From: Raillietiella orientalis
Lineage: Eukaryota
DNA: 64,000 nucleotides
Assembly: GCA_036172245.1 (NCBI GenBank)
Contig: JAYWIR010000008.1
Coordinates: 1,240,001-1,304,000, forward strand
Reading direction: 5' to 3'
Below the pieces are notes generated by a model that was given only the letters and a program-made list of their open reading frames with translations, did not search any database and was not told the DNA's origin. The position numbers were made by a program, and so were the translations under genes. Shown here piece after piece: positions 1 through 53,677 of the stretch. Position 1 is the first letter of the stretch. Each line of letters opens with the position of its first letter.

Positions 1-96
1 GCGCTCCAGGACCCTGCAGCCTCTCTCTACATCTCCCTCTTCATCCCCCTTTTATTTGCGACGGGTGGGCCAGCGCGGAAGGCAGGTTGGCTTGGG

Positions 97-16625: not shown

Positions 16626-18651
16626 AGGGGGCAGATTGCCTAGAGGAACTTTCTTTGAACTTACTCATATACTGAATTCACCAAAGTCCATGCCTTAGAC
16701 AACAGATCGGTTGCATTAAAAAAAACCAATACCATGTAGGTGAAATCTATGATAAGTGTCTGAATTAACGAAACACAAGTTCAATATTATATGAACAATT
16801 AACATTGACAACATGAGTTTCATCAGATGGAATAGATGTAGGAAAACCACTTTCAGGATAAACAAGAAAACGGACGTTATAGAGAGACGCATAGATTATA
16901 GAGAGACGCAAAAAGAGCATCAACAGACGTTAATGCACTTTCTGCATCGAGTTTCCAGCGTTCAAGGGTCACATGAAGGAAAACATCAAGGATAAAATAA
17001 GTGCATGGAAAGATTTCAACCCGAAACATTCAAAACAAGAGGAATGGATTGAAGAAAGGAAGGGAAAAGTATTCCAATTTAATTGATGAAATGATTTTTA
17101 TTAATGGTGCTAAATTCTTATGTGTTACTCACTACCATACTACAGCACGAAAACTCTTTGTACTCAAAGTCCTGAATAAGTTTTTGTGTACTCTTTTTCT
17201 TAAATAACAAAATTAAGAGAAAATATAGCTGGATTTTTTTCAAATTTCAATCAGTTGTTCATACAAACAGAAAATAGGTTTCATTTTTCGACAAAATCCA
17301 TCCTTCTGCCAAATGGTTTTAATTAATAAATGAAATTCAGATGATCTCCCAAAAAGTTCGTTTCCTTTGGGAAAAAACTGTCCGGTAGATTATTCTACAC
17401 CATTGTTTTCTTTAAGTACTCATAGCCACTTGCTGTATGGGCTGTCTCTTTCGTTAAGCTTCCTTCTGAATTCATTGGAACCGCTACTTATCCTATAATG
17501 AAAAAAATAATTAAACCAAGTTGAGCAAATGGGTGAGCAAAAGTACCACAAGTGAATTTCATTCACATTTTTGGTGCTGCATTCTTAATGTTTAAACTAA
17601 AAATTTGCTGAGACGCCTAAGTTACACACATAATTTAACTGTTCATGTGGACGAACCATTTCCACTGTGGTTCAGTCTGTGATAAGTAAAGAGACACTGA
17701 AAAACAAGAAATGCTAATTTTCTGGGATTTTTAAATTGCAAAATAAATTTAAATTTGCTTGACCACATGGAAATCTAAGATTCATTAAATGTGATTTGAA
17801 AATGAACATATGAAGCTCAATTTAGCTACTGGTCCATTAAATAAAAACTGTTAGATTAGCATGTAGAACATTCACAATGAAGAATTCAAACTGCTATATA
17901 ATGCATAATATGTATTTGCATATAATTTTTTATTTTCTTCTGGAATTATTTTGCAAATTTAAATATTACAATACGCAACCATGAAATACTTAAAGAAATG
18001 CAGATAAATATATGCATTAAATATCGTGGTTACAGTGAAAAGTAAATATAGTGGTCTGGATACACAAGCGTCTAAAATCTCGAGAATTTCATTTGATTTT
18101 CTTTTTATCTACAAAATATGTTTATGATAGCATCTAAAGGCATTACTATTAGTTCTGAAATTTTCATTTTGTTTTATAAACAAGACAAAATGTCTGGTAA
18201 CATGTGCAATATAAATAGTGGAAATTATTTCCCATGGTAAAGTGAAATTTGCAAAACAAACCATGTGATTTGTTTGGGAAAATATCTCGTGTTCTTATGT
18301 CCATGAGTGATTGTGTACCCAATATACCACCGAGACCATGCAATTAAAATCAGTGAGTGATTATTGAAATCATTTCTGGCTTTCCTATAGAAACAGGAAA
18401 AAAAAAAAAAAAAAATGCAAACCATTAATTAGTGTTTTGGTTGAAGTCATTTTTATCATGCTTCATGAAATGAAAAACCTCCTGAAAATTATTGCCAATG
18501 ATACCAATGCAGTTATTGCCATTTAATGGAAATCATAATAAGTGTTATATGACACTTCGAAGATATTCAAATTGAATTAATTTTGAAGTATTTCGTGCTT
18601 CACATTAACTTCCTTCTGCAAATACCTTATCCAAAAAATGTTTAACAAATA

Positions 18652-21600
18652 ATGATGTCAAAAGTGGAAAATACAGCAATATCAGATGAAACCAAAGTAT
18701 CTCTAGTCAGAAATCAATTAAAAAATGAAAATGATATTCTTATGTTTTCGTTGGTTCCTCATTTAAAAAGCTTACATGCTGACAGTGAAAGAAAAAGTTC
18801 TCATGGTTTGATACTGTTCGAAAGAGCAGATAAAGCATGGTGGAATCCCCGTTTTGATTCAAAAGTTCTAGAAGATCAGTTTTGGAAAACTAGTTTATCA
18901 CAAATATGTGTTCGCTTAAAGCATGCCTTATTGTATGTCTTGGTGCTTACTTTGGTCTGGAACATATACTTTATTTACAACTTTAGTCATCATTGGGTTT
19001 CACTAACAATTGGATGTCAAGCTTTAATTCTGATAACTGTGTGCATGTTATGTTTACGCCGTAGTAAAATATTTGCTAAACATCATGTGGTAATATCATG
19101 TGTGTATTCTATCATATTATGTGGTGCAACACTCACTGTAAATTCTCTTTATATAAGTTCGACAAATTGGTCATATATTTATGCTCAAGGTACTTTCTCA
19201 ATTGTTTTAGAAGTGCTTTTGCTTATTTATACTGTGATACCCATTCATTTTTATATGTGTTTTGTGATTACTTCCATTTATTCGATACTTTCGGAAATTT
19301 TGTTTTACAATTTTTTAAAGAACTCAGAAGAATTCTATATTCTCAATGTGAGAATTTTTCTTCATATATGTATCCATGTTATTGGAATTCATATATTTCT
19401 GATGTCAGAAGTGCGTACAAGAGAAACATTCTTAAAAGTAGCACAGTCTATTTTGAGAAGAAATGAATTAGAAATGGAAAAGCGTTTAAAAGAAAAAATG
19501 ATTCATTCAGTAATGCCACCCAAAGTAGCAGACTGGCTTATGTCTGAACGGCATGTGGATGAAAATGATGATGATGTGTTGACATCTACTGGATATAGGC
19601 ATTCAACACCACGATCATCAAATCCAGCTGATATGAAATCAATTTTTAGACCTTTCAACATGAGCCATATGGATAATGTGAGCATATTGTTTGCAGATAT
19701 TGTTGGCTTCACAAAAATGAGTTCTAATAAAACTGCTGAACAGTTGGTAGACCTTTTAAGTGATTTGTTTGGGAGATTTGACAACTTGTGTGTCAAAGAT
19801 GGATGTGAAAAAATCTCAACTTTGGGTGATTGTTATTATTGTGTTAGTGGATGTCCTGAACCAAAACCTGATCATGCACACTGCTGTGTGGAAATGGGCT
19901 TAGATATGATTACTGCTATCAAAGCTTTTGATGAAGATAAAAATGAGCAAGTAAATATGAGAGTTGGTATTCACACTGGAAGAGTCTTATGTGGCATAGT
20001 TGGTACTAAAAGATTCAAATTTGATGTCTTCTCCAATGATGTTACACTTGCAAACAAAATGGAATCCACTGGAAAACCAGGAAAAGTCCATATTTCTGAG
20101 AAAACGTACCAGTTTCTTAAATACGAATATTTTGTTGAAAAGGGGGAAAACTTAGATGGTAAATGCAAATGTGCTTATATTTCCAGCATTTTTTAATATT
20201 ATTTATATATATTTTGTAAACATCTTAAATGTAACTTAGTGTATCCTTTATTAGGTTAAGAAAATCTACTTAAATGAAAATTAACTTTTAAAGTATGCAG
20301 CGAAGCTGCAGTTTTTTTTTAAATTGTGAAAGCATTATGGCTTTTTTTTGTTATTTTTCCTGTTTAACATAAAGTCAATGCAGCTTGACTGTTTATCCAA
20401 AAATACATTTTAAGGATCATGTGAACATTGTTTATGTCTGAGTAAAGTTAAGACTTATTTTGAAAAGTATAGATGCAGAAGAAACTAATCTTGATATCAG
20501 ATCGTATTAAAACTTTACGTTGTTAATGTGATTTTTTAAGATTGATTACAATTATGATAAATTCTCTTTTATTACTTTTCTTATTAAGCAGTTGTGATTT
20601 TTCAGCAACAAGTCCCAAACTAATTTATTTGAAATTTTATTGTTTTGTAAGCATAAGAAATGTTTAGTAATAGAAATTTAAAGTGCTTAGTAAATCTTTT
20701 ATCAATTTTAAATAATAAAGATAATTTCATTTTATATAGTACTCTAAAATTACATATGTTTCTTGAGTCTAGTCAGTAATCCATTTTGAAAAGCATAATC
20801 TGAATGTGGTTTATTATTTATGTATATATGTATTTCTTCTTTCAGTAGGAGAACACTTGAGAGTAATCAGTGCTACAGATTTCATTAAAACAATTAGGTT
20901 TTTTGATTCTCGTACCGATTTTTGATTTATTGCCTTGTGACAGATGAAACTTATTTTAATGTCTTCAACTTCAGAACATTCTGTTGCTGGTACCTGTAGT
21001 ACTACGTAATATTAGTGGAAGGTATCAGAATAGAATGTTCAACATCATTTATCCTAATGTGTCTGCCCCCCTTGCAAAAATATTACCTTTTATTGATTTG
21101 ATGGACTGTTCCTTTGATGACCATAGTTCCTTGTTCTGACCTCCTTTGTAAAATTGAACTTTCGTCTTTTTGTAAGAGTTTGTGTTCAACCATAGTATGG
21201 TTCGTAGAACTTCGAAATACTTTGGATAAATGCATTGGATTTTTCAAAGCATTTTGAACTAAATTTCTGCAAATTTGGTTAACCTCATCTGCATTTGTAT
21301 GCATTGCAGATTTCCCTGCAGATAGTATGTGATTGACCTTATTTAGTTTGCCCAAACCTTGCGTTGTGGGACATTATTAAATTCAGGGGAATTCAAGATT
21401 GTAAAATTTTGTTTCAGTTATAAAAATTTGCATCCTATAAGTCTTCTATTTTGTGTTTACACATGTTTATATTATGCTGTGATTGAAGTCCTTCCGTTGC
21501 ATCACCCAAATCCACTTTGATATGTGTCTCTGCTCATACCACCACAAGTGTGTAAAAATCTGTGGCCATGCGTCACAGTTAGATATTTAGAATACGTTTA

Positions 21601-24600: not shown

Positions 24601-27223
24601 ATCACGGTTTGAGTCGACCCCTCATGTCGTCGCTACATCAATTCCGCTCATGCTGGCAGCGCGTGGAGATTTCCGTTGTAACCAGGGAAACGGGAGCACA
24701 GCATGCGCTGCCTTATTAAAAGGCTGAACTTTCGTCAAATTTCAAGTGAGGAACGCAGCACCAAAATACAGCGAAGATTGGGAAACTTTTAAGTCTTTAA
24801 TTCTTTTCTTTTCTTTTAAAAAAAAAAAATGTGTCCTTTTGCTGAACCTGCGGAGGAATGCAGATTCCTCCTCGAAGCCCATTTCTCTCCAGAGAGGGAA
24901 CACCACCATGTAAGAGTTATTCAATCCGTTTCGAGCATCTGATTTAACAGCGTTCCCCCCCCCCCCCCCCCTTCTTTTAAAGGCCAGCAGCGACGAGAAG
25001 ATCGTTACTATTGGCCTAGGATGATGGAAATCCCTGGGTGCTTTTTCCTTCATATTGTGTTCAATTTACATGTGGCATTTCCGAAACTTGCAGACATGGC
25101 TGCGATTGGAAAAACAAATTCATTTTGTATTATGTTTTTGTTTTGCGTATTCTTTGTCAAGAGTGTTCAAATTCTTGTATTAACAGAGTCGCAATTTTTC
25201 TTTTTTCTTTTTTTGTTGCGCGGATGCTTGTTATCTGGACAATAAGTTTTTGTGTGCAATGCTGCCACATCCTTTTTTTTTTTTTTTTTTTTTTTTTTCT
25301 CCTGCATTTGAAAGTACGTTTTATCTTTCGTAACTTTCTCGATTTGAACGTAATTTTTCCGCCGAGATCTTGCTTTGAATACTGCTCTGCTTTTGTGTCA
25401 TTGATGAGCGAGAATACATCACTGCGCTGAAATAAATATCGTGGAATGCTCTAGAGCTGGTTTCAATCGATTTTTGATCCCAGCAAATCAGCTGTCAAAT
25501 CATACGAGGAAATGAAATTGGTATGTATTTGAGGAATTGAAATCAGCCTGTATTGTTCCAAGCATTCATTTTCAATTTGTTTTAAGCTAAAGTATCTTAA
25601 AGAAACTGATCATCTTTTTGAATTGTAGTTCTGCTTCCTAACGAAGACATAAGGAATAGTAAACCCATATCACCGGACAAGAAATCCCGTAAGCAATCGG
25701 ATATTCAAATGGTCCGGTATATTCAGCAAGACACTACTCATAGAGATTATTTCTTGCATCCTCCTCTCGGTGCAATCACGTTGTTTTTCACTGATGTCCA
25801 GATGGAACGAGATTACAGACGCCACGGGCATCTCCACGCATGTTCGTCCGAAGGTGCCCCCACTCTGGCATCTCCACAGTTTAGCTTGTTTTTTGATTTA
25901 TTGGTGTCGGCAGTGGTGTTTGCAGTAATAAGTGTTTCGTGTTTCATAAATTTACGTCCAACCCCCGTGCTTGCTGCCGTGCTGTGTGCCGCAGGATTCT
26001 GCGTGCAAATCATGTTGCTGTGGTTATGTGTCCAAGAAATAACTGGACTGTGGTGCAGTCCCTTTCACTCGCTGTACAACTGGTGCAAGCAGTGGTATCC
26101 AGCTCATGCGATTGGAGCAGCGCTCGTCATTTTGCCTATTGCTATGGTTTACAGTCACTGGAATTGTGTCAGCATAGTATACAGTCATGTGTATTTCGAA
26201 CTTTTCTTCGTCGCTTTAGTCCACTTCTGCAACTTTAACCGATTGAATAACTGGTTGAAAAATACGCTGGCGGGCATTTCTGGGATCGTGATGATATCGC
26301 TGGTAGCGTCTCGTATGTGTCTGCCTCCACTTTTGACGTCAGCGGTAGTCAACGCGACCGGCATCACGAATTCCTCCGATCTTGAACCAGTGCAAGAAAA
26401 TTCAGATTCGGTTGCGCACGAGCTCGTTTTAGATGTTATCTTGTTGCTATGTCTCGTCTTCTCTCTCAATCGTCAGTTCGATATCGAGTGCAGATTAACT
26501 TTCCACGGAGGTGCCATGGCTGCTCGAGATAGAGCCAGCGTGCTGAGTCTGAAGCGTCAGGCCGACTGGTTGCTTAACAACATCATTCCTGAACACGTGA
26601 TGGTGGATCTGAAAACGAAAGCCCGTTACTCGCAGAACCACCACGACGTGGGCGTGATGTTCGCGAGTGTCATCAATTTCAACCAGCTATACGACGAGTC
26701 TTATTTAGGGGGACGTGAATACCTTAGGGTTCTGAATGAGTTGATAGGGGACTTCGATGACCTGCTCGACCGACCGCAGTTCGCGAACGTGGAGAAAATA
26801 AAGACCATTGGCAGTACCCTCATGGTTGCTTCCGGACTCAATCCGGAACTGAGGATGCAGAATGCAAACATATATCAACACCTGTTCGAACTGATGGATT
26901 TTGGATTTGCCCTTCTAGAATTAGTCGACGTTTTCAACAAGGATCTGATAGAGTTCAACTTCATAATACAGATAGGCTATAATTACGGAGACGTGACAGC
27001 TGGGGTCATCGGGACCACAAAGCTGTGTTACGACATATGGGGTGATACGGTGAACATTGCAAGCCGTATGTACAGCACGGGGGTGCCCAACCGCATCCAA
27101 TGTAGCGAGCACTGCATTTCCGCCTTGAGCAGGCGTTACGAATTCGAACCCCGTGGCATGGTTTACGTCAAGGGCAAGGACAACATGAACGTGTACCTGG
27201 CGAAGGGCAAGAAGGAGACCTGA
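18652..27223 (+). CDS. ADCY9: Adenylate cyclase type 9 ortholog (Drosophila Ac13E-like), 4 coding exons
   Basis: Exons 18652-20158, 23052-23233, 23420-23513 and 25629-27223 have GT-AG junctions with compatible phases. AC9-type N-terminus (LFERADKAWWNPRFDSKVLE), TM block, C1a (VSILFADIVGFTKMS, KISTLGDCYYCVSGCP, MRVGIHTG, FDVFSNDVTLANKMESTG), second TM block and C2a (EKIKTIGST, GVIGTTKLCYDIWGDTVNIASRM, VKGKDNM). Confidence 0.95.
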
Positions 27224-38282: not shown

Positions 38283-39078
38283 GCCGTTCTTTCTTACTTG
38301 CGTCATTTTGTACAATTTTGTCACATTGCTGCTCTACGAGATGTGCTCGAGTGACAAAATGACTGCATCATGCACATTGTGCACTGCTGATTGATCCTAC
38401 GGACTTCGTGTGCGGGCAGTGTTGGGTTGCTGAACGGTGAACCTGAAAACCAGTTTTAAATGATCACAATAAAAAAAAAAAAACATGCCAGTCGCTGATT
38501 AACAGTACGATTTTGATTCTGGAGCTACGGGAGACCTCATTTTAAACCAGCAATTCAGAATGCTACCAACATGGAGTCGGCGCCGGGCTGTGGTGGAGTG
38601 CCTACTTCTGCCTGGGGCGAAATGGGGCCGTGTGTGTGTGCACGTTGCATGCTGGCTGCCTTGAGACCTACCAGTTTGTAGGTATCACCTAACAAAACTT
38701 TGGTTTGGAAGGGGAGGGGGGGTGTCCGTCCAATTAATCCTGGCTTTAAACTTTAACTCGCTTTGGTTCTAAAATGTCAAAAACGCTTTATCAAGCAACT
38801 GCTCCAAATCGTGTAAGGTGTTTGTGGCGGTATTTAAAGAATTCACATGGCTATGTATTGATTCAGGTGTTATTGCTGTGCACTGATAAACAAAGTCCCG
38901 CTTTTTTTTCTTTTTTTATTTTCAACAGCTCCTTATCCTGCGCAGTGCAAACATGTCTGCCGTCATTGTGTACGGGAACGTAGCATGGAACATTAATGAA
39001 CTCATTTTCACTTAGCCATCCATATCTGTTTGGCAAACGTTTTAGCTTTTGTTCAGTAAAATGCCTCCCATACTCAAA

Positions 39079-39887
39079 ATGCAAAATTTTCGTAATTGTT
39101 CGAGAATTTTGGGGACGTTGAGAAAATATGCCACTGCAGCGGTATCTGAGAGCACATCAAAAAATGTGACTCTTACATTTGCATCTCCATCGAAGGTATG
39201 TTTTCATGAAGTGCCATTAATCCAACTTTACAAAATCGTGCGTACCTCAGGTTTTTTATAATGCAAATCCCGTGAAACAAGTAGATGTCCCAACATTCAG
39301 TGGAAATATGGGAATTTTACCGAATCATGTGCCAACATTAGCTGTTATTAAATCTGGAGTAATAACTGTTTTTGAACAAGATGGGGGTCCCAAAAAATAT
39401 TTTGTTAGTAGTGGTTCTCTTACGGTGAATGATGATTCCTCCGGTAAGATACATTTTGGAATGATAATCTGAGTTTGTGCCCTATGATGCTTCTTGAATG
39501 TCAAATTAGAAAATCACTATATGAATTATGCATTTTTATTCGTTAAAATATTGCATTGGGCAATGTAAAATATGTATAGCAAAGTGTTTTGCTTATGAAA
39601 CTTCATACTGAAAAACATGCAGCTTCTGTTCTTTGTAGCATGGTTTTAAGTTTGTTTAACAATAAGTGGTTTTAACATTTCATTTTTTTTGTGTTCTTAC
39701 AGTTCAGGTTTTGGCAGAAGAAGCAGTATCTATTGAGGAGCTAGATGTAAAAGTTTCTCAAACCCTTTTAACTGATGCACAGACAAGTGCAGCATGTGCA
39801 AAAACAGAAGAAGAAAAAGTGCAAGCACAAATATCAGTAGAAGTAGCAGAAGCATTAGTGAAAGCAGCTTCAGAAGTAACACACTGA
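39079..39887 (+). CDS. ATP5F1D: Mitochondrial ATP synthase F1 subunit delta, 3 exons
   Basis: Exons 39079-39195 (an in-frame ATG at 39061 is an alternative start), 39251-39443 and 39703-39887. Presequence-like N-terminus, then LTFASPSKVFYN, VKQVDVPTFSGNMGILPNHVPTLAV, KYFVSSGSLTVNDDSSVQVLAEEA and AQISVEVAEALVKA. Confidence 0.96.
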
Positions 39888-40856
39888 AAGCCTTTAGGGA
39901 ACCAAATAGAAACCAATAAAGACAAAGTTCAAGAATAATTACCTGAATTACTGTGTTCTCATGAATTTTTAAAGCATATGCATTTAAAGATTCATTAAAT
40001 GATTTAATGATATGAAAAAAAAAAATGCAATCTTTTTTTGCCTCCAAACCTATGGTTTGTGATTTTGGTAGCAGAAGACCAAATCATATCCAAGTATTGA
40101 TGCATTAGTTAATTTATCCCCTGTGTTTGGACAACTTTGAATACCTGATGGCAGTGCATGGTTTCCTTGAAGGTGCATCCATTTTTGATACCTTTTGTTG
40201 GTGCTAAAATCATTGACTGGAAACTTTTTGCAGATAGTAAAAGCATCTTCCTACTTACTAAAGTTATGCAGTGGTTGCTGATGAAGAGCACACAAAGCCA
40301 TTTTGTTTAAAAAAAAAAAAAAAAAAGAGAAATTATTATATATGGGCTTTAACTGCTCCCACCAAAGGTCCACGGCACCCGAGGTTCCTTGGCAGTCGCC
40401 CATCCAAGTACTAATTTTGTAAAGAAGAATCTCAACATTTGAAAAATGATGGATAAACTTGTTTTCAATCACTGTTATAAAGTGTAAGAACTTGAAATTT
40501 TCAGCAATGATTTTCAATTTCGAAAACTAAATACTGTTTGTTATATGCAACACCAATTTAAAACAGGATTTGTTACAAAAAAAAAAAAAAAAAAGGTTCA
40601 ACCAACCAATCAATAGCTTATAGAACAGCAGTTGCAGGTTTTTAGATTTGGAGCAAAGAATGCCTATGCACAGTGCAGTTTTTCAGCGACCATCAGAAAT
40701 CTTCCATGCAGATAAACTTAACTGTGTGACAATGTGCAGACTTGATTGTAAGATCATGCAGTGATGATGCATTGGTTTTGCAGGTTTTTAAATCCTGATA
40801 TGAAATATTCAGCACCAAAAACCGGATTTATATGAAAAAAAATGAACATTCACATG

Positions 40857-41486: not shown

Positions 41487-42843
41487 AACACAACAATTAA
41501 TATAAGACCCAAGGCCGTATAAGGGAAACTTGCCGTGGAGTCCTGGAGCAACATCTCAACTCAAGTGTTAACCCAAGTGTCTCAACCCATCTCAACCCGA
41601 TTTCTCATTTACATCTGCACCAAGCCCTGCCCTGTGATGCTGAGGACACCAACAGGATGCTGAGGATGTATTCCAGCGAAGTGTGATCCCATCCCCGGTC
41701 CCCTCCCACTCCCCAATGAAACTTTTCCCCCATCCACGTGAGGTCAAGCTCTTCCACCACACGACAATGGATGTGGCACGCCTCCTGTTGAGGTCTACGC
41801 TGAGGTCGCCCATCAGCGGGAAGGCGGTCCTTCGGTGCCACCTTGTTCTTCAGAAGTCTCCAGGGCCAGCGCTTGCTGGCTCTGGAGACTGTTGGCGCCC
41901 TTGAGCGTTCACCACAAAGAGATGAACGCATCCGGACCACGCCATCCGAAGGCCCGGGACGCGACCTCCACATCCGTGGAAGTCTTCTTCCAGGATGGCT
42001 GGTGGCAGGGTGGCCACCTTCACCAGGATGGCTACTCCCTTGTGTCTGGTCTTGGTTCCCACCTGCGTGCTGCGGTCCAGCTCTTGTTCCACGTCGGGAG
42101 GCAACTGGTGGGTTTCCTAGGGGCACGGCATACGAGCTCCTGTCGCAGGAGCCACGCCAGCTGCCTCCTCTTCCGCGAGTCCGCCCATCCATCCATGTTC
42201 CACGATGTGCACCGTGTGGTTTCGGTACCGATAACGGGAACTGTTGCTCCGTTTAGTGCTGGTTGGGGTGGATCGCGGCCTGCGCCACGTTGCCTTCCTT
42301 CCTTCAGCCTTTTGACTGTGACCGCCACGTCGCTATTGCTGCGTCTCCCAGCCGAGCTCTCGGCCGCCGGCTCTTCAGGGCGTCTTTGCAGTACGGTACG
42401 GCGTCCTCGGAGATGGAGCATCCGACGGCGCTGCCCTCGTTGTCTGTGGCCGGGGATGTGACTTCGGCACCCACGGTGGGCGAACCCTTAAATCGCACTT
42501 CCTTCCTTTTCCTGTCGACCGGAAGTAATACTGACTGGATCGCCGTGTGTACTGCCGTCTCCAGGCGTTGGTTGACGGAGGAGGAGAAGGGGTGACCTCC
42601 CCGATCGCCAGGTATAGACCAATTGCAGGGACGGTAAGCACCAACGATCAGGATGCCATCCTAGGTATTCCATCTTTCTTTGAATTTTGGTTTGCCCGTG
42701 ACGGGCATTCACAAAAATTCTATAAGCGCTCTTTTAGACGCTCCCGCCCACGGATTTCTTTAGTAAAAGGCGAAAGAAATACTCGCATAGAGCAGGAGCC
42801 CGAGCTCAACGAGAAATGCTTCTTCGCAGTGCTCAATCTCAGA
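41487..42843 (-). mobile_element. Internally deleted L1/Tx1-type non-LTR element with a U5-like head (element A)
   Basis: The minus strand reads GAGCACTGCGAAG, then a U5-like sequence, an ORF1 remnant (LRVRPPWVPK) and a frameshifted AP-endonuclease N-terminus (SWNMDGWADSRKRRQL, ETH, KGVAILVK, MGDLSVDL). Tentative 10-bp TSD with one mismatch: GTAATAATCA 41477-41486 and GTAGTAATCA 42844-42853. Ends are approximate. Confidence 0.72.
42693..42806 (-). ncRNA. U5: U5 snRNA-like sequence, full length (114 nt), divergent variant inside element A
   Basis: AGCUCGG-GCUCCUGCUC-UAUGCGAGU-AUUUCUUU-C-GCCUUUUAC-U-AAAGAAAU-CCGU-GGGCGGGAGC-GUCUAAAA-GAGC-GCUUAUAG-AAUUUUUG-UGAA-UGCCCG-UCA-CGGGCA. Invariant loop 1 at 42763-42771, fully paired stems Ia/Ib/Ic, Sm site at 42712-42719 and a 3' stem-loop. 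Confidence 0.9.
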
Positions 42844-43299: not shown

Positions 43300-44311
43300 A
43301 ATGGGTCCACTTTTTCAACGGCTTGCTAGACAAGGCGGCCTTCGTACGCCTCCAGAGGATCTCATCGAGAGTGAGGCAGCACCGGAGGACGCGACCCTCC
43401 TCGCCGGTCGACGTGAGCACCGATCCCGAACGCAGCCGTATCTCCACGAGGTGCTGGCGGCCATCTTCCGTCTCACGGAGGAAGAGCTCGACCTCGCGTA
43501 CATGGGGACGGCTGCACGCCCATGGACTACGTCTAGCATTCGCGGATGATCGCCCACCGATTCCGGAGACTCTCGGATCTTCTCCACATCTTGGACCACG
43601 TCGTGGAGACCATCCCCGCCAATGCAGACACCCGCTGCTTTGGTGACTGGGATTGCTTCAAGCGTGTCGAACACATCTTTCAGACTTTTTTTTTTTTTTT
43701 TGGAAGATGGGGGGTGCGGATGCGGCTGGGAGCGGAGTGAGGGTGGCTTTGTTCGGGTGCCTACACTAATTCCAGCCAGGTGCACCACCATGTACGGTGT
43801 CTCACCAACGCCGCGTATTGTCTTCCCATCAACGATCCCTTTCTCGACCGTCGCTTCAATCAAGGGTTCGCAGTCGGCGAAGTCGGTGAACCCGCTGGCG
43901 CTTGGCACTATCTCCTCGGCCCTGTCAAAGTTGACATTTTCCTTGAAAAAGGCCAACTAGAAGATGTTCCTGATGTTGCTGACGCGAACTAGTCCGGTTT
44001 TAAAGCTGATTGCCTTCACTCCGGGTCCGACTTGCACCATCGGTTCGTCCACGTCCTCCACATTTATAATCTTGGGCTTTCCAAATGCTTGTCTGATCGA
44101 TTGGGCGTGCCACGGCAGCGTACGAGGTCGGGCTGGCGGGTGTTTTTATGGCGTCGCGGTCGTTGGGTCTTCCACGTTCGATTTTGCGGGCGCCGCAACT
44201 GTTGCTCACTGGGCCGTCGCGCTGCCATTACCTCTTTGGGCTGGGGAGTCGACGTGAGCCTTGGTCTCACTGCCGCCGTCTGCATCCTCTCCGTCGACGA
44301 GAAAAACATGA
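43300..44311 (-). mobile_element. Degenerate LINE fragment (ORF1-like part joined to an endonuclease-like remnant)
   Basis: Broken minus-strand ORFs with SYAAVAR and an ORF1-like segment (GIVDGKTIRGV, YMVVHLAGI), followed by VCIGGDG, which resembles the APE GDFN region. It directly abuts the 3' end of element B. Confidence 0.5.
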
Positions 44312-44969
44312 TTTCCCCAATCCCACAGTGGTTGGGGTAAGTTTATCTCCATTCATTCTACACTCACATTCATCGTAAGGGAAGTGGCATATTTAACAAA
44401 CACTTTCAGTTTCACTTGTGGGAGTTATTTCACCAAGATCTGCACTAGGGGTGGGGTCTGGGCAATCGGTGTCCCTGGGTGGTACCTCAATCTTTTTCAG
44501 GATATGTCAGTACGTCCAGGCTGGCACTCGTCCACAGTTCCTTATTCCGATCTCCCTTTTAACGATCCTTTTCAGGATTTCCATTGGGGGTTTGCCCTTC
44601 CGGCGATGATGAATAGGGCGATGGTCGTCCTCACCATTGGCTTGCATAGGGGAACGTTTCCGCTCCCCTGGAACACCCCGTCTAGGACCGCCCATCTTCG
44701 AGGAAGACCCACGACCGCCTTTTTCAGGGGCTGCCAGCCCTGGTGCACTGTCAGACACGTCCGCTGTTGACGCCCTCGGGTGCACAGTGTGGCAAGGAGG
44801 GAAAGAGGAAGGAGCAGTGACTGAAACTTCTCCTTCGCACTCGGGAGAGGGAAACCTTGACTTTGCTCAACTACTAGCTCCCGTGAGAGAGCTCGCCAAA
44901 AATTCGTCTAAAGACTCATTTAGACGTCCCCGTCCATGGAATTCTTTAGTAAAAGGAGAAAGAATTATG
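44312..44969 (-). mobile_element. SINE-like non-autonomous unit: truncated U5 head, short 5' region and LINE ORF2 3' end (element B, ~660 bp)
   Basis: The region after U5 shares AGCAAAGTCA, GGAGA(A)GTTTC and CACCCGAGGGCGT with 51604-51771. It then reads GVFQGSGNVPLCKPMVRTTIALFI...PPMEILKRIVKREIGIRNCGRVPAWTY, matching the ORF2 ends at 45126-45908 and 47969-48796. It ends in CCCCAACCACTGTGGGATTGGGGAAA. Confidence 0.85.
44876..44966 (-). ncRNA. U5: U5 snRNA-like sequence, 5'-truncated pseudo-copy
   Basis: Near-identical to the 3' ~91 nt of 51772-51887 and lacking the first ~25 nt. Loop 1 is mutated to UCCUUUUAC. The Sm site AAUUUUUGG and the 3' hairpin remain. Confidence 0.88.
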
Positions 44970-45908
44970 TTTCCCCAAGTCCCACAAGGGGTGGGGTGAA
45001 TTCATTTTCTTTTTTTTTCATTCACACTACAATCTCATTCATACAAATTACACAAAAACTGCACTTCACTTCAGTGTTCACTTGAAGTCTGCTTCTTTGG
45101 GTCTCTGAAAGTTCACTGCACTCAATCACCTGAGTGTCGTGTGGGCATAGGTTCTTCCTGCAATCCTTCGCAGGATGTGTCGGTAGTTCCAGGCCTGCAC
45201 TCGTCCGCAGTTCCGTATACCGACCTCCTTCTGGATGAGCCCTTTCAGGATGTCAGGAGATACGGTCGTCCTGGTGGTCTTCATCTTCCACCACCGCACA
45301 AGAATGGCGGTGATGAAAAGGGCGATGGTCACTCTTATCATGGGGTTATAGCGGGGAACTGTTCCAATTCCTTGGAACATCCCTGCCAAGACCTCCATGG
45401 TCGAGGCGTTGGATAGCCCGATAACCCTTTTCAGGGTAGTCCACTCGGCTTGCAATGTGGGGCAGGTCAGGGCGTGACGTCTTGTATCTATTCCACCACA
45501 TGCTCTGCAGATTTCTTCCTCTACTCTTCCCGTGAAGAGCTTCATCCTGGAACCACTCAGGATGCCTCCATGGTAGAACATGAGGAGGTTATCCTGAGTG
45601 TCCGGTGGTAAATCACTCCTCCAGAGCACCGTCCCAATCGCTAGTGGATTAAATCCACTACCAGCGTGACGGTCGGTGGCATCTTGGAGGGCACTGGTGT
45701 CAAGTTGTTCTATTATAAGACGGCGAATATTAGTCTTCGTTACTCTGGACCACTCGAAGTCGCGGTGGTTCTTCCACACTTCACGGGTCCTGAGTGTGAA
45801 GCTGCCGGAGATCCTTTCGACATAACGAAGCACCCGAGAATGGTGTTTCTCACCCGGGTGCACCGGGGCGTTTATTTCTAATGGTGTAGGTGTCGTTGTC
45901 GTGTCCAT
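44970..45908 (-). mobile_element. 3' part of a U5-family LINE (ORF2 C-terminal CCHC/zf-RVT region and 3' UTR)
   Basis: ORF 45126-45908 contains LWRSDLPPDTQDNLLMFYHGGI and CRACGGIDTRRHALTC. The 3' end is CCCCACCCCTTGTGGGACTTGGGGAAA. Confidence 0.85.
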
Positions 45909-46210
45909 GCTTCACTAATATTTATTAATATTATTTTAATATTATCGTGTAACATGAAAATATTTAAATACATAATTTATTTATTATAATACAATCATAA
46001 TTTTATACCTGGTTTTAAATATACTATTTATATTAAATCTTGAAAGTGAATCAAAATATTCTTTGATTTATATTAAATCCCAAATGTTTTATATAACAAT
46101 CATTTATTGTTAATATATAATATATTATTTTTTAATTAATTAAATAAATTGTATTCTCAAATCATTTTTATTATTAATAAGGTAAATTTAAAATTTATTC
46201 ATCCTAAAAA

Positions 46211-46264
46211 TAAGAAATAGTTTAATAAAATATTTTGTCTACATCAAAGAGGAATTTTTCTTAT
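46211..46264 (+). tRNA. trnV: NUMT mt-tRNA-Val(TAC), T-armless
   Basis: Acceptor TAAGAAA/TTTCTTA, short D-arm, anticodon stem TTTTG/CAAAG with TAC at 46240-46242, and a TV-replacement loop. Confidence 0.7.
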
Positions 46265-47010
46265 TTTAATTAAAACTAATATGACAGAAATATATGTATT
46301 AAATTTAGGATTTAATTATGCTTAAAGCTGTTAGTAATAATTTTTACACGTGATTTAGTATTAGTTAAAAGAATGAGGTATATATAAATTTTTAAAACAA
46401 AATGTGTAGTATTTAATTTTAATTATAAAGAAAATTTGAATTAGTAATTATTTAAAATTTTGTTAATATGCGTGCCAGCAATAGCGGTTAAACGTAAACG
46501 TTAAATGCATATTAATATTTTACTAGTTTAAAATAAAAAATTTTGGTTTTATATTTGAATATTAATTTTTAATAAGCTATTATTAATAAAATAGAATTAG
46601 GTACTCTAATATAAATAGTGGATATTAAAAAACAAGGAGGAAGACTTATATGAATTGGTGGTAATGAACATCATTAGGGGAGTTTGCTTAATAAATGATA
46701 ATCCGCGAGGAACTTACTTTTTCAATGTTTGTATATCGTTGATTTGATTATTTAAGAGTTAACTGATTTTCTCAATAAATGGTAATTGAAAGTTTTAATC
46801 AAGATGCAGCATGGAAAAGAATAATTTGTGAACTACAGTAACTTAAACTTGAATATATATATGTAATTTTATATTGAAATAGGATTTAATTGAAAATTTA
46901 TTTTAGAAAGGTAAATTGAATATAACGATCTTTGAATACAAATCGCCCGTCGTTCCGATTTAAGGTTAGATAAGTGGTAAAACTGGATGTACCGGAAGGC
47001 GTATCTGGGC
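46265..47010 (+). rRNA. rrnS: NUMT mitochondrial 12S rRNA pseudogene
   Basis: Motifs GTGCCAGCAATAGCGGT, ATTAGGTAC, ACAAATCGCCCGTCG, TAAGTGGTAAAA and GTACCGGAAGGCGTATCTGG. Ends are approximate. Confidence 0.9.
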
Positions 47011-49330
47011 AAGGGGGTAATTTACTAATTAAGGTAAAGATTAATTTGATGTGGATAATTATTTAAAATTTTGTAAAATATAAATATGAAATTATTAGTA
47101 AAAATTTTTCATTTTATAGTGATAATGAAAAGCACTGAAAAGGATTTCAGTAACTAATAATAGAGTGTTAAAATTAATTATCTTTTGCATCAGAGTAAAA
47201 TTAATTAAAAATTTATATTTAATGTTCGAATATTAATGAGTTAAATAAAATGATTGCTATATGTAACAAAATATAGTGAAATTCTATTTGGAGGTGATGT
47301 GCTGACAAATTAATATTTCTAATTATTAATGAATAATAAATTTGGGATAAGCTTGGTTCTTTTTGTAAATGTGATAATAGTTGTAAATTATAAGCTTTAG
47401 GGTAGCTATTATAAGGTTTTTATACTAAGTTAATGTTAATTTTAAGGTATTACATGAATGGAATGTAATTAATAATAATTTATGTGAAGTAATGTTTTAA
47501 TTAGTAAAATGTCAGGTGAAATTAAGTTGTAAAGTAAGAATATTATAAGGAATTCGGCAAAAATTTGTTGAAATTGTTTCTTAAAGACATTTTGTTATGA
47601 ATAATCTAAGGTATGATCTGCTCGGTGTATAATAAACAGCTGCGGTATATGGACTGTGCTAAGGTAGCGTAATAATTAGCTATTTAATTGGTAGCCCGAA
47701 TGAAGGATGCATTAAGCAAGGCTGTCTTGTTTTGTGTATTTGAATTCGATGTTATAGTGAGAAATCTATAATGAATTTAAGGGGCGAGTAGACCCTTTGG
47801 TACTAGTGTTAGAGGAACTGAAAGAGTGGTAGTGAAATAAGATTTTAGCTTTCCCCTATTCCCACAAGGGGTGGGGTGAATTTATTTATCCCTTTTCCAA
47901 TCAGGGTACATCGGCTCACTCATTTCCTACTCACACCACAAGTGTCACTGTTCAGTTCGTTTCTGCATTTAAGGAACATTGGTTGATGTCGTTGCCCGGG
48001 CGTCATCCTCATTCCTCTTCAGGATATAGCGGTGCGTCCAGGCCGGTACTGGTCCACAGTTCCTGATGCCAATCTCCTTTTGGATTAGCCTTATCAGGAT
48101 TTCCATCGGAGGAGCGGCTATCCTGGCGTTTTTCATCTTCCACCACCGCACGAGTCTGGCGGTGATAAAAAGGGCAATGGTCGTCCTTACCATGGGATTG
48201 TAACAGGGAGCATTTCCATTTCCCTGGAACATCCCGGCAAGTATTTGCATCACTGAACTGGTCGTAAGTCCTATGATCCTTTTCAAGATCAGCCGATCGC
48301 GAAGTAAGGTGGGACAGGTTAAGACATGTAGTCTCGTGTCGATGTCTCCACATGGCTTGCAGTTTTCGTCTTCGCGTCTTCCCGTAATGTACTTCATTCT
48401 GTACCCAGTCGGGATTCCTCCGTAGTAGAACATTAGGAGGTTGTCCTGGGTGTCTGGCGGTAGGTCACTCCTCCAGAGTGTGGTGCCGATCGCCAGCAAG
48501 TTCATTCTATTGCTCCCATAACGATCGGCGGCTTTTTGGATAGCACCGGTGTCTTGGTCTTCTTCTTTAATTAGACTTCTGAGGTTCTGCTTGCTATTCC
48601 TGGACCAAGCAAAGTCATTGCGGTTTTTCCGCACTCCACGTGTCCTTTGGGTGAATCTGCCCAACATCATCTTTATATATCGCAGTATGCGGGTGTGGTG
48701 TAGGAACCCTCCTCTATTCCATTCCTGGATTCGTTGTGTGGTAACTCTGGGACGCTGGTATATCCAGCTTCTCGTGTGCGAGGGCACCTGGAGCATCCAA
48801 GGGATTACCAGGATAGAGTTCCTTGCTTCTGGGAACGATCTTCAATTGGTGTTTTCGCACCAATTGCTGTTTCCTCCTCCAGGTGGGGTCCATGCTGAAC
48901 CATTCCCCTGCTCGGCCTAGCAATACACTCATCAGTCCTTTCGATTTGTTTAATAACGTCGAATAGGCCCTACAAGATTACAAAATGAGATTTTAGAAGA
49001 ATGTGATCTGGGACGGATAGTGAAGAAGTTATCTTCATGGTTTCGTAGTTTCCTATGAAATAAGAATCATCTCGAAATGGAGAAAACGTTGCCTAAGGGA
49101 CAACAGCGTAATTTTCATGGAAAGTTCTACTTGGTATGAAATTTTGCGACCTCGATGTGGAATTGGGTATCTGCAAGATGAGTAAGGTTTGCAGTAACAG
49201 TCTGTTCGACTGCAAATCCTACATGATTTGAGTTTCGATCGGTGTCAGGCAGATTGGTTGCTTTCTTCCAATTCTCATATAGTTTCTTAGTACGAAAGGA
49301 TTGGAAAGTTGGAATATTTTTTGAATAAGG
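47011..49330 (+). rRNA. rrnL: NUMT mitochondrial 16S rRNA pseudogene, interrupted by a LINE at 47849-48982
   Basis: AGGAATTCGGCAAA, CTGTGCTAAGGTAGCGTAATAA and GCGAGTAGACCCT lie before the insertion. AGGGACAACAGCGTAA, GCGACCTCGATGTGGA, TCTGTTCGACT, CCTACATGATTTGAGTT and TAGTACGAAAGGA lie after it. Confidence 0.92.
47849..48982 (-). mobile_element. 5'-truncated U5-family LINE inserted in the NUMT 16S, with TSD
   Basis: ORF 47969-48796 is homologous to 45126-45908 (LWRSDLPPDTQDNLLMFY, CKPCGDIDTRLHVLTC) and has the same 3' hairpin end. It is flanked by AAATAAGATTTTAG (47835-47848) and AAATGAGATTTTAG (48983-48996). Confidence 0.9.
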
Positions 49331-49519
49331 AAAAATTATAATATACATGAGTGAGTTTTGTGATGTTTTACACAGTACGATGATGTTTTCTGTATAATTT
49401 GTTTGAGAGTTAGTATTTATTAAATGGATTTATTGAAAGTGGAGTTTAATAATATTTTATTCGAATAGTAAAGTTTCTTAGTAGTGATTAGAAATTGGAA
49501 GTGTTCTAATTAAGAAGTT

Positions 49520-50380
49520 AAGTGTGTTGATAGCTATTCGGGGAAGATTAAGAGTGTTGATGGTGTTAGTCAGTGTATCATTTGATCGAGGGTCATGTTT
49601 TAGGGGGGAGGGGGGGGGTACAGTGGGGTGAAAGGCCCGGTGAGGTGGGGGTTGGTATCTTTCAACCGATCGTTTGAAATTGCTAAGCAAGGAGTATTAT
49701 GAGTTGGTAGATGGAAATAAAATTGGTTATAAAGTGGGTCCGTTGATTATGGTGGCAGAAATGTTGCAGATAGGAAGGGTTGATGCTAGAGGTTGAGGGT
49801 TGATGGGAGGGGTAATGTTGTTTGTGTGTTATTCAACGGGGAGAATATGCAGGGTATGAATAGGTGGTTGAGCTAGTAATAGTAAATATAGATATGTCGA
49901 CGTGGTAGGTCGAGTAGCTCAGATGATTTCTTATGAAGTATGTATAATTGTTGTATTAATGAGTGCGGTGGTATATGTGGGAGGATACGAATTAAAATTG
50001 GAAGTGAGAAGAAGGTTAACGTTTTGTAGGTTAGTCGGATTCGTTGTATGAGTTATTGTGTGTTTGGTGGAGGTTAATCGTTTGCCATATGACTTTCTGG
50101 AAAATGAGTCTGAATTAGTATCTGGCTATAATGTACAGTATGGTGGAAGGTTATTTGTTTTCTTGTTTTTATCAGAATATGGATTTATTATTTATTGAAG
50201 ATTGGTTACGAGATGAATGTATATAGGGGATTATATAGTGGGACTTGAAAGTTTGCTTGTAATGTATGTGATTATATGATTACGAGGGGTGTTGCCTCGT
50301 TCTCGTTGTGATAAGTTAATATATATATGTGTTGAAGTATTTTGCTGTATTGTGTGTTTTATTTTCTATTATGAGGAGGG
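49520..50380 (+). pseudogene. nad1: NUMT nad1 pseudogene
   Basis: With the invertebrate mitochondrial code, fragments read [78 protein letters not shown] and WLRGVLPRSRCDKL, with frameshifts. Ends are approximate. Confidence 0.9.
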
Positions 50381-50492
50381 AGGGTAGTAATGATGAGAAT
50401 ACGTAGTCAGTATGATGGGATAGTAAGAATGAGTTTATGAGAATATGAATTGTGGGTATTAAAGGATTATTTCTTGATGGTATATTTGAGGT

Positions 50493-50548
50493 TGCCTTTA
50501 ATTTCTTTTGGATTTACAAAATCAATGTTTTAATTAAACTAAGAAGGC
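50493..50548 (-). tRNA. trnT: NUMT mt-tRNA-Thr(TGT), T-armless
   Basis: GCCTTCT-TA-GTTT-AATT-AAAAC-A-TTGAT-TT-TGT-AA-ATCCA-AAAGAAAT-TAAAGGC-A on the minus strand, just after the cob stop. Confidence 0.72.
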
Positions 50549-50553
50549 TGGAT

Positions 50554-51603
50554 TTAAAGAGGGAATGTAATGAAGAATGAAAAATAAAGGAGTGATGTAA
50601 TTTGTGTGAGAGGTAGCACTGATGAGTGATGGTTTGAGTTCCTAATCACGTAAGAATTAAGAATGATGATAGTAGAAATGAGAGGAGAATTTTTTTTCTG
50701 GGGTAGTAATGGGAACATAGCGGAGTTGGAAGTTTGTATATTGGTAGGGTGGTAAAATGAGGATTCTGGAGATTGGGGCAATTACTCCTCCTAATTTGTT
50801 AGGGATGGATCGCAGGATGGTATAAGCGAATAGGAAGTCTCATTCGGGTTGAATGTGCGAGGGGGTTGGAAAGTATCGAATTTTCTTCAGATATGAATAT
50901 GTAAGGGAAAAAGGTGGATGTAAGTAGGAGGAATGTGGTGAGTGGTAGAAGGCTTGTTAAATCTTTAATGATGAAGAATGGACGGAAGGGTAGCATATCT
51001 AGGTTTCCTCTGGTTCCTAGGGGGTTTGAGGAGAAGTTTTTGTGGGAGAAAAATTGGTGTGATAGAGAGACGATCACTCTTATGAAAGGCAGGATGGGGT
51101 GTAGGGAAAAGAATCGATTGAGAGTAGGGTTGGATACGAAGAAATTTCCTCATAAAAATGAGGAAATTTCCAATGAGGAATGTTGTCCAATGAGGAGGAT
51201 GGCGGAAAATAGGTTAGTGATAACTGTAGCGGTTCAAAGAGATCTTTGTCCTCAAGGAAGAACATAACCTGGGAATGATGTTATTGTTAGTAAAATGAGA
51301 AGGAATCCTGATAATCAGGTTATAGTGTTTTTGTAGAAAAAGAAGTATAATGCGCGGAAAGTGTGCAGGTAGATTGCTATGAAAAAGGAGGCGGTATTAG
51401 CGTTGATGTATTGTATGAATCATCCGTTATTGGTGTTGTGCATTATGTTGATGATTGATGAAAAGGCTTCTGAGGTATGGGGGGTGTAATGCATGGAGAT
51501 GATAATGCCTGTAAGTAGTTGGGTGATTGGAAAGATTCCTATTACGGAGTCCAGGTTTGAAGAGTAGGAAATGTTTGATGGTATAGGTATGCTCGTGAGG
51601 GTC
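50554..51603 (-). pseudogene. cob: NUMT cytochrome b pseudogene, lacking only the extreme N-terminus
   Basis: PIPSNISY, QLLTGII, MHYTPHTSEAFSS, GYVLPWGQ, ATVITNLFSA, NPTLNRFFS, SSNPLG and PFFIIKD, with indels. Confidence 0.93.
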
Positions 51604-51916
51604 GCAGATCTTCCACCGTGGACTCCCCGGGGCTGCAGCTGGTGACTTCTCAGCTGCATTGCAGTGATGGGTGGACGAAGTCACTGTTCACTGACTTGAC
51701 ACGCCCTCGGGTGGGTGAGGCGTCGCGAGGAAACTCTCCTCCATGAGGATTCCTGACTTTGCTTATCAACTAGCTCCCGTAAGGGAGCTCGCCAAAAATT
51801 CGTCTAAAGACTCATTTAGACGTCCCCGTCCACGGAATTCTTTAGTAAAAGGCGAAAGAATTGTGCGTTCGAATGGGGACCAGAGTTAAACTACTTCGGA
51901 GTGCTCCCTGCACGTC
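51604..51916 (-). mobile_element. 5' head of a U5-family LINE (element C head): 5' motif, U5 and presumptive ORF1 start, fused to cob
   Basis: Begins GACGTGCAGGGAGCACTCCGAAG, comparable to GACGTGTTTTTCCTGCACTCCGA at the 5' end of the LINE at 57449. The post-U5 sequence is homologous to element B, and ATGGAGGAG lies ~27 nt after U5. Confidence 0.8.
51772..51887 (-). ncRNA. U5: U5 snRNA-like sequence, full length (116 nt)
   Basis: AACUCUG-GUCCCCAUUC-GAACGCAC-AAUUCUUU-C-GCCUUUUAC-U-AAAGAAUU-CCGU-GGACGGGGAC-GUCUAAAU-GAGU-CUUUAGACG-AAUUUUUGG-CG-AGCUCCC-UUAC-GGGAGCU. It matches the metazoan U5 core UCUUUCGCCUUUUACUAAAGA..UCCGUGG, with a Sm site at 51792-51800. Confidence 0.95.
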
Positions 51917-53677
51917 AACAAGGAGTTTGCTTTGAATGTAGTTCTATGTTGGAGAGATAAGATTGAGTATTTTCTTGTTTGTGTAAAATTTGGTAATTAT
52001 TTGGATTGTTGCCATTCTTTTTTCATAAATTCTACAAAATGCTTTTTAATAAATCTTCGAATTTGTTTGTTTTTTTGGGTATGGATGCAAACTTTATTTA
52101 AAAGTTTGAACTCCTTTTTTTCCCTCTTGTGACTATTTTTTTAACTAATCACTCGAGTTGAGCATGCGATGGTTAGATGGCAGCGTTAAAGCTCATTTTC
52201 CCTCCGGAAGTGAGGAAATTGAATGGTTAGCGGGACTTCACCAGCTGCTATGAATTTTCTCTGGGGAATTTGAACGTACAAACAGAATTCTGGTGTTCCA
52301 AAACTCCCCAGTTATTGGACTGCAACCGTGGACCAATTTTGAATATTGCGCTTCGGTTTATCGAATCCGGCAGTAGGTCGGCTTATCTGTTTCCTGTGTG
52401 CGATGCAAATTACGAATTTCCGTCGAGCTCTACGGAGGTGCCATGCGCTGGTGGTGATCGTTCTTTCCCTGACAAACATTTTACGCCATCAATGGGCAAC
52501 CTTTAAGTCGCCATGTGCCGCACTGGGTTCCACGAAGGGTGTTGCGGATCACGGCTCTAGACACCTCGAACATCAGATTCTTACATTGAAAATCTAGATG
52601 GAGCATTTTTTGTCTACTTTTTGTTACGTTTTATAAATACTCTCTAATTCTACCGACCTAAACTTATTTATCTCAATGATGCTCTCAAAGGAAAAGGAAT
52701 AACAGACGTGAAATTTTTTTTCGCTGAAGAACAAGTGCATTCACAAAAGAATGAAACAAAAACTTATAGAAAGGTCAAAATATGTGCAAAACTTCAAACA
52801 AGTTATCGTGCCTTCGCATGTAACTGCAACAGATTCAGGGAAAATTAATTAGGTGTCTTTCCTGTTTACTTTCATGAAGAAAAATTCGTTCAATGAACCG
52901 GAGCTGAACTCCCGATGCTCGCTGCACAAATTTCTTTTCATTTTATTACCAGGGATTGTTATTCGAGGAGGACACTGTTTACACTCACTTGCAATACTGT
53001 GTTTGCAACACCAAAGAGGGAAAATTACTCGGAACACACACACGCATTTCAGCACACTTCTTGCACATGCTTTTGCCTTTCAGCTTCCCCTAAGGCCTAT
53101 GCAATTTGCAGGCTCTTTGAGAAAACAGGTGATTGTCCGCTAACGGAAAGCTATTCCCGATCCTAGTCTTCACCCTCCTTTCCCTCGCCCCCCTTTTTCC
53201 ATTTATTGCATTCTTCCTTCCTACTTCGGACCCTCCATGAAACCAACCCGCATGCCGCTGATCCCTACAGCCATACTTGCTGCCGGTTCCCTTGGCAACC
53301 CGGTTCTTCTATATAAATTTACTTGTCCAGCAAGCATCGACGAGACTGGGCAAGGTTACACGAGGGCGTGCTTCGATGGTTGACTGGGGCGGCCCTCGGC
53401 TTGCCTAGAGACCCTCTCCGAGGAGACGATGGGCTGCAAGCTGGGAACACTTCGCCGCCGCCTACGTTTTCACCCGGTCAAGCCGGGGTCTTTACTGAAA
53501 AACTTACAGAATTTGCGGTACAAGGCCCCGCTGCGGCCAATGGTTCTCTGGAGATGTCGGGTGGTCGGAGCGTGGACCGACTTGACACTCCACGGCAACG
53601 GATGGGGTTGGGGGAAAAACAAAAATAAAAAAAAACAAAAAGTACAAACACTTGTCAATTGGAGGGCCGGGAAGGGA

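Follow-up and report, generated by a model that had tools for sequence, protein, structure and literature searches.

The 64,000-nucleotide stretch of Raillietiella orientalis DNA analysed here (the window; G000:C8:1240001-1304000, on a 5.2-Mb contig of a 210-Mb assembly in 491 contigs) contains a composite of 6918 bp in which the two ends of a long interspersed element (LINE), headed by a U5 small nuclear RNA (snRNA), enclose mitochondrial DNA (mtDNA). We put at roughly 0.75 the probability that this composite is a genomic fossil made at the DNA level, in which an old, already-nuclear mitochondrial segment (NUMT) was joined to the LINE by DNA breakage and repair, and is not captured mitochondrial RNA. 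The composite is without coding function and has not spread. Labels such as C5, C9, C15, C50 and C133 denote contigs of the same assembly (G000).

Structure and age of the composite

Read on the minus strand, the composite runs from U5 through a 3'-box-like flank and LINE leader into mtDNA with a nested LINE, and on into the C-terminus of open reading frame (ORF) 2 and a 3' hairpin. This anatomy had been proposed in an earlier note made from the window's letters alone, and is borne out by Rfam, alignments and family matches. The mtDNA occupies 51591-45916 and carries, in minus-strand order, cob, trnT, nad1 (in the opposite sense), rrnL, rrnS, trnV and an AT-rich region; we take the mitochondrial gene order of the NUMTs to be arthropod-type. 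Both joins exist as had been described, although they lie at 51592|51591 (5') and 45916|45915 (3') rather than near 51603 and 45909. Microhomology, which the note had also raised, amounts to 1 nt at the 5' join and about 2 nt at the 3' join, and fits end joining and template switching alike. The LINE head and tail were correctly assigned to one family and one orientation, and both match the same full-length copies (81% and 84% on C9, 72% and 86% on C15). Relative to the C15 copy (5444 bp), about 4.3 kb of LINE interior is gone. The length without the nested copy is ~5.8 kb, as the note had it, but its agreement with a typical LINE length is a coincidence, ~4.3 kb of LINE having been lost and ~4.55 kb of mtDNA gained. 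The features are as follows (TSD, target-site duplication; PSE, proximal sequence element; UTR, untranslated region).

51889-51945, minus: U5 promoter region, outside the LINE, with a PSE-like motif at -55 (51943-51938); motif comparison across snRNA loci
51771-51888, minus: U5 snRNA of type A at full length, forming the element's head and predicted to be a promoter-backed gene; Rfam 88.7 bits, loop 1 and Sm site intact
51592-51770, minus: 3'-box-like flank and LINE leader/ORF1 N-terminal region; 78-82% to copies on C5, C9, C386 and C19
50557-51591, minus: cob pseudogene from codon ~13; frameshifts and damaging changes common to the C133/C244 paralog
50490-50556, minus: trnT-like gene (TGT)
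49490-50420, plus: nad1 pseudogene; alignment to near-intact NUMT
47000-49340, plus: rrnL, interrupted by the nested LINE; alignment, with the site empty in four other NUMTs
47850-48972, minus: nested 5'-truncated LINE of the same family but another subfamily (70% to the tail), ~13-bp TSD; common to the paralogous NUMT
46270-47000, plus: rrnS; alignment to near-intact NUMT
46203-46265, plus: trnV-like gene (TAC), between rrnS and the AT-rich region
45916-46200, no strand: AT-rich (control) region, cut inside; C50 and C320 run on into the remaining control region and nad2
44970-45915, minus: ORF2 C-terminus, 3' UTR and 3' hairpin (ending at 44970); comparison with relatives
45847-45879, minus: 33-bp 3' end of a second LINE family, 8-bp TSD; lacking in relatives, matching the ends of the family at 53480

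The leader at 51592-51770 has no protein-level match because it is cut short. Both tRNA calls were made by eye from alignment to the near-intact NUMT on C50; ARAGORN called no mitochondrial tRNA in the insert, its mitochondrial mode giving noise only. The second LINE family is represented at window positions 57400-53460 by an L1-type element with a zinc-knuckle ORF1 and an endonuclease, its reverse transcriptase deleted, and its type of 3' end also interrupts the C133 NUMT as well as the tail.

A search of the genome with the mtDNA insert gave 73 matches (best 40 of 1052 candidates scored), and 12 regions were fetched for comparison. No true mitogenome was identified, and the near-intact NUMT on C50 served as its stand-in. 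That NUMT (C50:53500-69000) is near-complete at ~15 kb, has open nad2, nad5, nad4, cob and nad1 frames and a duplicated trnT-like gene; the C320 NUMT differs from it by 3.7%, with a third-position bias (6/0/22).

Two paralogous NUMTs, C133a (C133:32455-42069) and one on C244, are 91-94% identical to the window and 96.7% identical to each other over 17.7 kb. Both carry the nested LINE at the same rrnL site and with the same 3' junction (C133a has lost 166 bp at its 5' junction), and the nested copy is 96% identical between window and paralog; the site is empty in C50, C320, C2 and C10. Where the window's cob breaks off, C133a carries on in the 5' direction for ~5.6 kb, taking in nad6, nad4L, part of nad4 and nad5 and reaching cox3. 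A cob tree (8 rows) groups the window with C133a and C244 with support of 100/100, and a nested-LINE tree (6 rows) gives the identical group, again at 100/100.

The cob differences between window and C133a fall 18/25/25 on codon positions 1/2/3, for which uniformity is not rejected (p=0.49), whereas those between the window and C50 fall 40/33/125 (p=0.0003 for the contrast of the two patterns). The window, C133a and C244 have 74 cob changes in common; 31 of these are also present in the next relative, C27, and fall 1/1/29, whereas the 31 that are absent from C27 fall 8/10/13 and include replacements in conserved cob motifs. Judged by these comparisons, the NUMT first aged as nuclear DNA, then received a LINE in rrnL and only afterwards was duplicated, and the insert had been nuclear long before the copies split. 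The common nested LINE and the nuclear pattern of change argue that no mitochondrial transcript was the template of the insert.

Origin of the composite

We envisage three steps. A U5-headed L1/Tx1-like LINE would have entered a U5 gene at nt 23, and its head would have joined the gene's first ~22 bases; the architecture, an intact U5 behind a promoter and a 5'-truncated U5 after the element, is seen directly, and from it we infer homologous 5' joining. A large NUMT (at least cox3 to control region, ~10 kb) had, as the comparisons above show, aged in the nucleus, acquired the LINE in rrnL and undergone duplication. End-joining-type events with 1-2 nt of microhomology would then have formed the composite. 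Two routes could have led there, neither of which reaches even odds when taken alone. In the one that we tentatively prefer, the NUMT inserted into ORF2, and the leader was joined to cob when most of the LINE and cox3-nad6 were subsequently deleted. In the other, only slightly less likely, a piece of a paralogous NUMT was copied in from another locus during repair, with the loss of ~4.3 kb of LINE. The first is slightly favoured because it needs no missing donor and because primary NUMT insertions seldom delete much (PMC2567098, in the part available); the second agrees with the absence of family LINE from the flanks of C133a. Duplication and deletion after insertion are described as routine for NUMTs in the available part of PMC2820518. 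The presence of control-region sequence in the insert also speaks for an origin at the DNA level.

Several observations weigh against this reconstruction. The nested LINE differs from that of the paralog by 4.3% (42/968) and the mitochondrial parts by 6.9-8.9% (p=0.0003), which a single duplication does not explain; partial conversion or a difference in rate may lie behind it. Neither flank of the C133 paralog carries family LINE, and an empty site joining the C133a flanks was not found (right flank searched genome-wide, left among the fetched loci). The part from rrnS to the control region has no close paralog, the best being at 88% among the best 40 of 1052 candidates scored. Finally, the 8 pieces viewed, of 101 from one low-depth DNA contig run, bridge neither main junction, which we count neither way; one contig of that shallow run crosses the nested-LINE junction by ~10 nt only.

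One explanation in the earlier note was that reverse transcription had switched templates twice, taking in a mitochondrial major-strand transcript. The sense orientation of cob relative to the element agrees with this, but the nested LINE and the nuclear-type changes predate the split from the longer paralog, and tRNAs are, as a rule, the cutting sites of mitochondrial precursor transcripts. Only a later deletion at the 5' join would leave the idea standing, in which case nothing points to RNA, and we regard it as the least credible of the explanations, with hardly any weight left. A switch onto a read-through transcript of a nuclear NUMT that already had its nested LINE is better placed, if still unlikely: both LINE ends are kept in order, the nested LINE and cob run in the element's direction, the machinery readily copies other RNAs (the ~25 tailless U5 retrocopies described below, several with TSDs), and the microhomology fits equally. 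Yet two switches and a 5.7-kb AT-rich transcript are needed, and a donor spanning cob to control region is not among the matches, C133 and C244 stopping in rrnL.

That head and tail come from different units of a tandem U5-LINE array, joined with the NUMT by deletion, seems a shade less probable again. The family does form arrays at snRNA loci (element B below; C188, C220 and C51), and the head has no close relative tying it to the tail (best 78-82%), but head and tail match the same full-length copies, and a single element accounts for U5 head and U5 target alike in fewer steps. Misassembly of a U5-LINE locus with a NUMT we consider improbable. The locus is repeat-rich, its junctions are unique and one run does not bridge them; on the other side stand the 5.2-Mb contig in an assembly of only 491, the 7% divergence of the insert from its nearest paralog with private indels, and the need for two false joins that kept the order and direction of the LINE. 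We thus return to breakage and repair of DNA, to which the note's other explanation, mtDNA patching a break or deletion in a LINE, comes loosely close; the patch was an aged nuclear NUMT.

The note had further suggested that the composite, having kept both ends, might be mobilised in trans. No other match spans the 5' join 51592/51591 (13/13 candidates scored) or the 3' join 45916/45915 (best 40 of 511 candidates scored), so no mobilisation is evident. Some 40 kb away lies an inverted copy, truncated at its 5' end (G000:C8:1330890-1331540), to which about 640 bp of the tail (window 45820-45180) are 99-100% identical and whose flanks reach only 74-84%; this stretch is a recent gene-conversion tract, and ectopic exchange does occur locally. 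The tract confounds dating of the LINE against the NUMT, and open frames are powerless for this purpose since the older nested copy is open too. The composite itself represents dated shuffling of NUMT and LINE debris, and foreign DNA enclosed by both ends of a LINE is no proof of retrotransposition.

U5 head, target site and LINE family

Of 22 Rfam U5 matches in the genome (best 48 of 12591 candidates scored), the copy at 51888-51771 scores highest and is the sole full-length type-A copy among those listed. A PSE-like motif at -54 to -58, picked after viewing the loci scored, is present in its exact form at 4/4 gene-like U5 loci, 2/9 U4 loci, 0/12 U5 pseudogenes and 0/5 U1 loci. The stretch upstream of U5 had been called a LINE 5' motif; of 41 genome matches none but itself covers it, and because the PSE-like motif is common to other snRNA loci we assign it to the U5 promoter region and not to the LINE. 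The U5 at 51888 is accordingly predicted from sequence to be a promoter-backed gene. Three features lie beyond the 3' end of the composite.

44850-44969, minus: U5 from nt 23 with 3' flank, which is the insertion target of the composite and also heads element B, its loop 1 carrying mutations; 93% identical to the composite's head U5, junction at nt 23
44310-44849, minus: element B, a leader fused to a short tail, single copy; none of 51 matches spans it (best 40 of 394 candidates scored)
42690-42807, minus: second U5 gene, of type B; it has a PSE-like motif of its own, and a decayed LINE comes after it; Rfam and motif comparison

The absence of a TSD, correctly reported before, is accounted for: a whole U5 precedes the element, and the element's 3' end falls at nt 23 of the second one. 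On C15 an element with its interior kept is arranged likewise (promoter, whole U5, 5.3 kb of LINE, U5 from nt 22). An exact-pattern search of the genome found three LINE 3' ends in U5 at nt 22-23 (C8, C15 and C188), with ~1e-4 expected; the 3' hairpin has 266 matches (84 forward, 182 reverse, mostly double-counted), roughly 180 places by eye. We considered the head U5 as a 120-bp long TSD of the target, which is not general: head and tail U5 differ in variant on C15, C188 has a U4 head and a U5 tail, and other insertions have TSDs of 12-16 bp. Element B as a family of short interspersed elements was likewise ruled out, since it is single copy among the scored matches. After it, at window 44310-43700, comes a third ORF1 fragment, damaged at its 5' end and preceded by what may be a degenerate remnant of U5. 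Scattered across the genome are about 25 tailless U5 retrocopies (ending at nt ~75-95), several with short TSDs; there are two U5 types, type A among them.

The term U5-headed LINE also stood up, as snRNA heads are heritable in the family and the window's head and tail fit one lineage. All 42 U4 matches exceed the cut-off, and the 16 fetched (the top matches) all run into family coding sequence within 1.4 kb, as do 14 of the 16 fetched from 42 U1 matches into such sequence; for U5, 5 of 21 loci do so by protein, the window head being added by DNA, and the four promoter-backed U5 loci viewed all lead into LINE sequence. Both ends were checked in 17 headed elements, 12 of which have the 3' end in the fetched stretch. 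Clear TSDs enclose a U4 head on C3 (16 bp), C46 and C13, and weaker ones do so on C5 and C128, so that the head travels with the element. For U5 heads a common junction is limited to two loci (C15 and C188), and no TSD-bounded case was seen among those checked. Heads keep their 3' flank, head-leader junctions are common to copies, and a PSE-like motif lies upstream of some.

An intact U1-headed copy on C51 has ORFs of 580 and 1177 aa with Pfam Exo_endo_phos and RVT_1 domains, that is, an apurinic/apyrimidinic (AP)-type endonuclease and a reverse transcriptase (RT). The nearest solved relative of its ORF2 is human L1 ORF2p (E 1.5e-56, vs 8e-24 for R2), and an atlas search returned RT/endonuclease clusters only, unnamed. 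By its sequence the family belongs to the L1 group of LINEs, with two ORFs, an AP-type endonuclease and an RT; we presume the label Tx1-like from ORF layout.

In a set drawn from all fetched loci, and hence enriched for snRNA by the way of fetching, 10 of 43 family 3' ends are located within U1, U4 or U5, of which nine fall at nt 20-23 and the tenth at about nt 16; among the first 20 places, unselected, two are so located, one being the window's own. Strict insertion at one site of one snRNA fails, most copies lying outside snRNA genes and three snRNAs being used; strong enrichment at a fixed snRNA position holds, at nt 22-23 of U5 and at nt 20-23 overall. Head and target are the same snRNA in five of the six elements with both ends known (window, C15, C71, C87 and C51), the exception being C188 (U4 head, U5 target). 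Flanks outside snRNA often start with ATC (ATCG 7/43, ATCT 3/43), as do U1 and U4 sites but not U5 sites, and endonuclease preference thus explains part of the pattern.

These patterns could arise if read-through from an snRNA promoter gave an snRNA-LINE RNA and the endonuclease made a nick near position +20 of an snRNA gene. Once the RNA had been reverse-transcribed, the head would pair with the gene's first bases, much as in R2, restoring gene and element promoter together; repeated rounds would build tandem arrays, and copies landing elsewhere would keep the head but have no promoter. A broader proposal, which we hold to be possible but doubtful, is that position guides the family: irrespective of sequence, it would home to a point ~20-23 nt past the start of Pol II snRNA genes (U1, U4, U5), led there by the machinery that transcribes snRNAs or by pairing of the snRNA head it carries. 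It would rebuild the gene and itself be transcribed from that gene's promoter, so that the host's intact U5 (perhaps also U4 and U1) genes would all be LINE heads.

Related arrangements were seen elsewhere in the genome. An array at C188:24832-15050 consists of promoter, U5, decayed LINE, whole U4, LINE, U5 from nt 22 and LINE, with a U1-headed array 5 kb away on the same contig. A U4-headed subfamily recurs at one site of another repeat with a common ~14-bp TSD (C13:2458818, C5:2531874, C128, C26, C167, C11 and C87). The eight best U2 matches viewed are all 5'-truncated at one site behind AT-rich ends, with no full-length U2 among them; we take this site to resemble that of Keno/Utopia. Elsewhere in the window, two long frames (18646-20196 and 25622-27223, both plus) are presumably halves of an adenylyl cyclase gene, a gene with short GC-rich introns (1-4400, minus) looks acetyl-CoA synthetase-like to us, and a second gene-like stretch (39000-39900, minus) is by our assumption ATP synthase delta-like.

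Comparison with known systems

Large NUMTs with later duplication, deletion, transposable element insertion and joins of 0-2 nt microhomology are known (Hazkani-Covo et al. 2010, PMC2820518; Hazkani-Covo and Covo 2008, PMC2567098; both in part). The insert resembles them, but here the piece has taken the place of a LINE's interior, flanked by that element's two ends; no NUMT-filled LINE was found among the titles surveyed.

For the LINE family, the available part of Kojima and Jurka 2015 (PMC4640811) describes Utopia in Phytophthora, with an intact U2 upstream and a truncated U2 downstream. Our family shares with Utopia the intact upstream and 5'-truncated downstream snRNA and the tandem arrays, and some Utopia families have relaxed specificity. 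The endonuclease of Utopia, however, is restriction-like and its target is U2 alone (nt 39), whereas our family has an AP-type endonuclease, inserts into U1, U4 and U5 at nt 20-23, and has a head that moves inside TSDs. Keno and a Tx1 family targeting U5 are likewise AP-endonuclease LINEs that enter snRNA genes; Keno is U2-specific, whereas most copies here lie outside snRNA genes and three snRNAs are used. The U5-targeting family is named in the Fig. 3 legend of Kojima 2015 (PMC4494074), by which alone we compare it.

In its heads the family resembles crocodilian Tx1-Mar (U1/U2 heads) and SINEU, autonomous Tx1 elements with snRNA-derived 5' heads for which transcription from flanking promoters is proposed (PMC4494074, in part). 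Tx1-Mar targets a Mariner element and not the snRNA gene of its head, and the available text names no U4 or U5 heads; co-transcription is also cited there. Mammalian snRNA/L1 template-switch chimeras (via the same partial source) also place an snRNA 5' of a LINE inside one TSD, but are one-off and contain mature snRNA, whereas the heads here have a 3' flank, are common to many copies and in some cases stand behind a promoter. In a survey that lay outside Repbase and subscription journals, we found no literature on U4-headed autonomous LINEs, on a single family that enters U1, U4 and U5 at one shared position, or on SNAPc-linked insertion.

Kojima and Jurka regard low-copy snRNA genes as poor targets, and the part of their paper available lists only U2, U1 and U6 cases (PMC4640811). 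A LINE that restores U1, U4 or U5 on insertion would remove this cost to the target gene. How snRNA-headed elements are transcribed is left open in the available part of PMC4494074; gene-restoring insertion offers an answer, and the intact C51 copy is available for its study. The family described here is an snRNA-headed, snRNA-preferring LINE, and as such a variant of these known systems.

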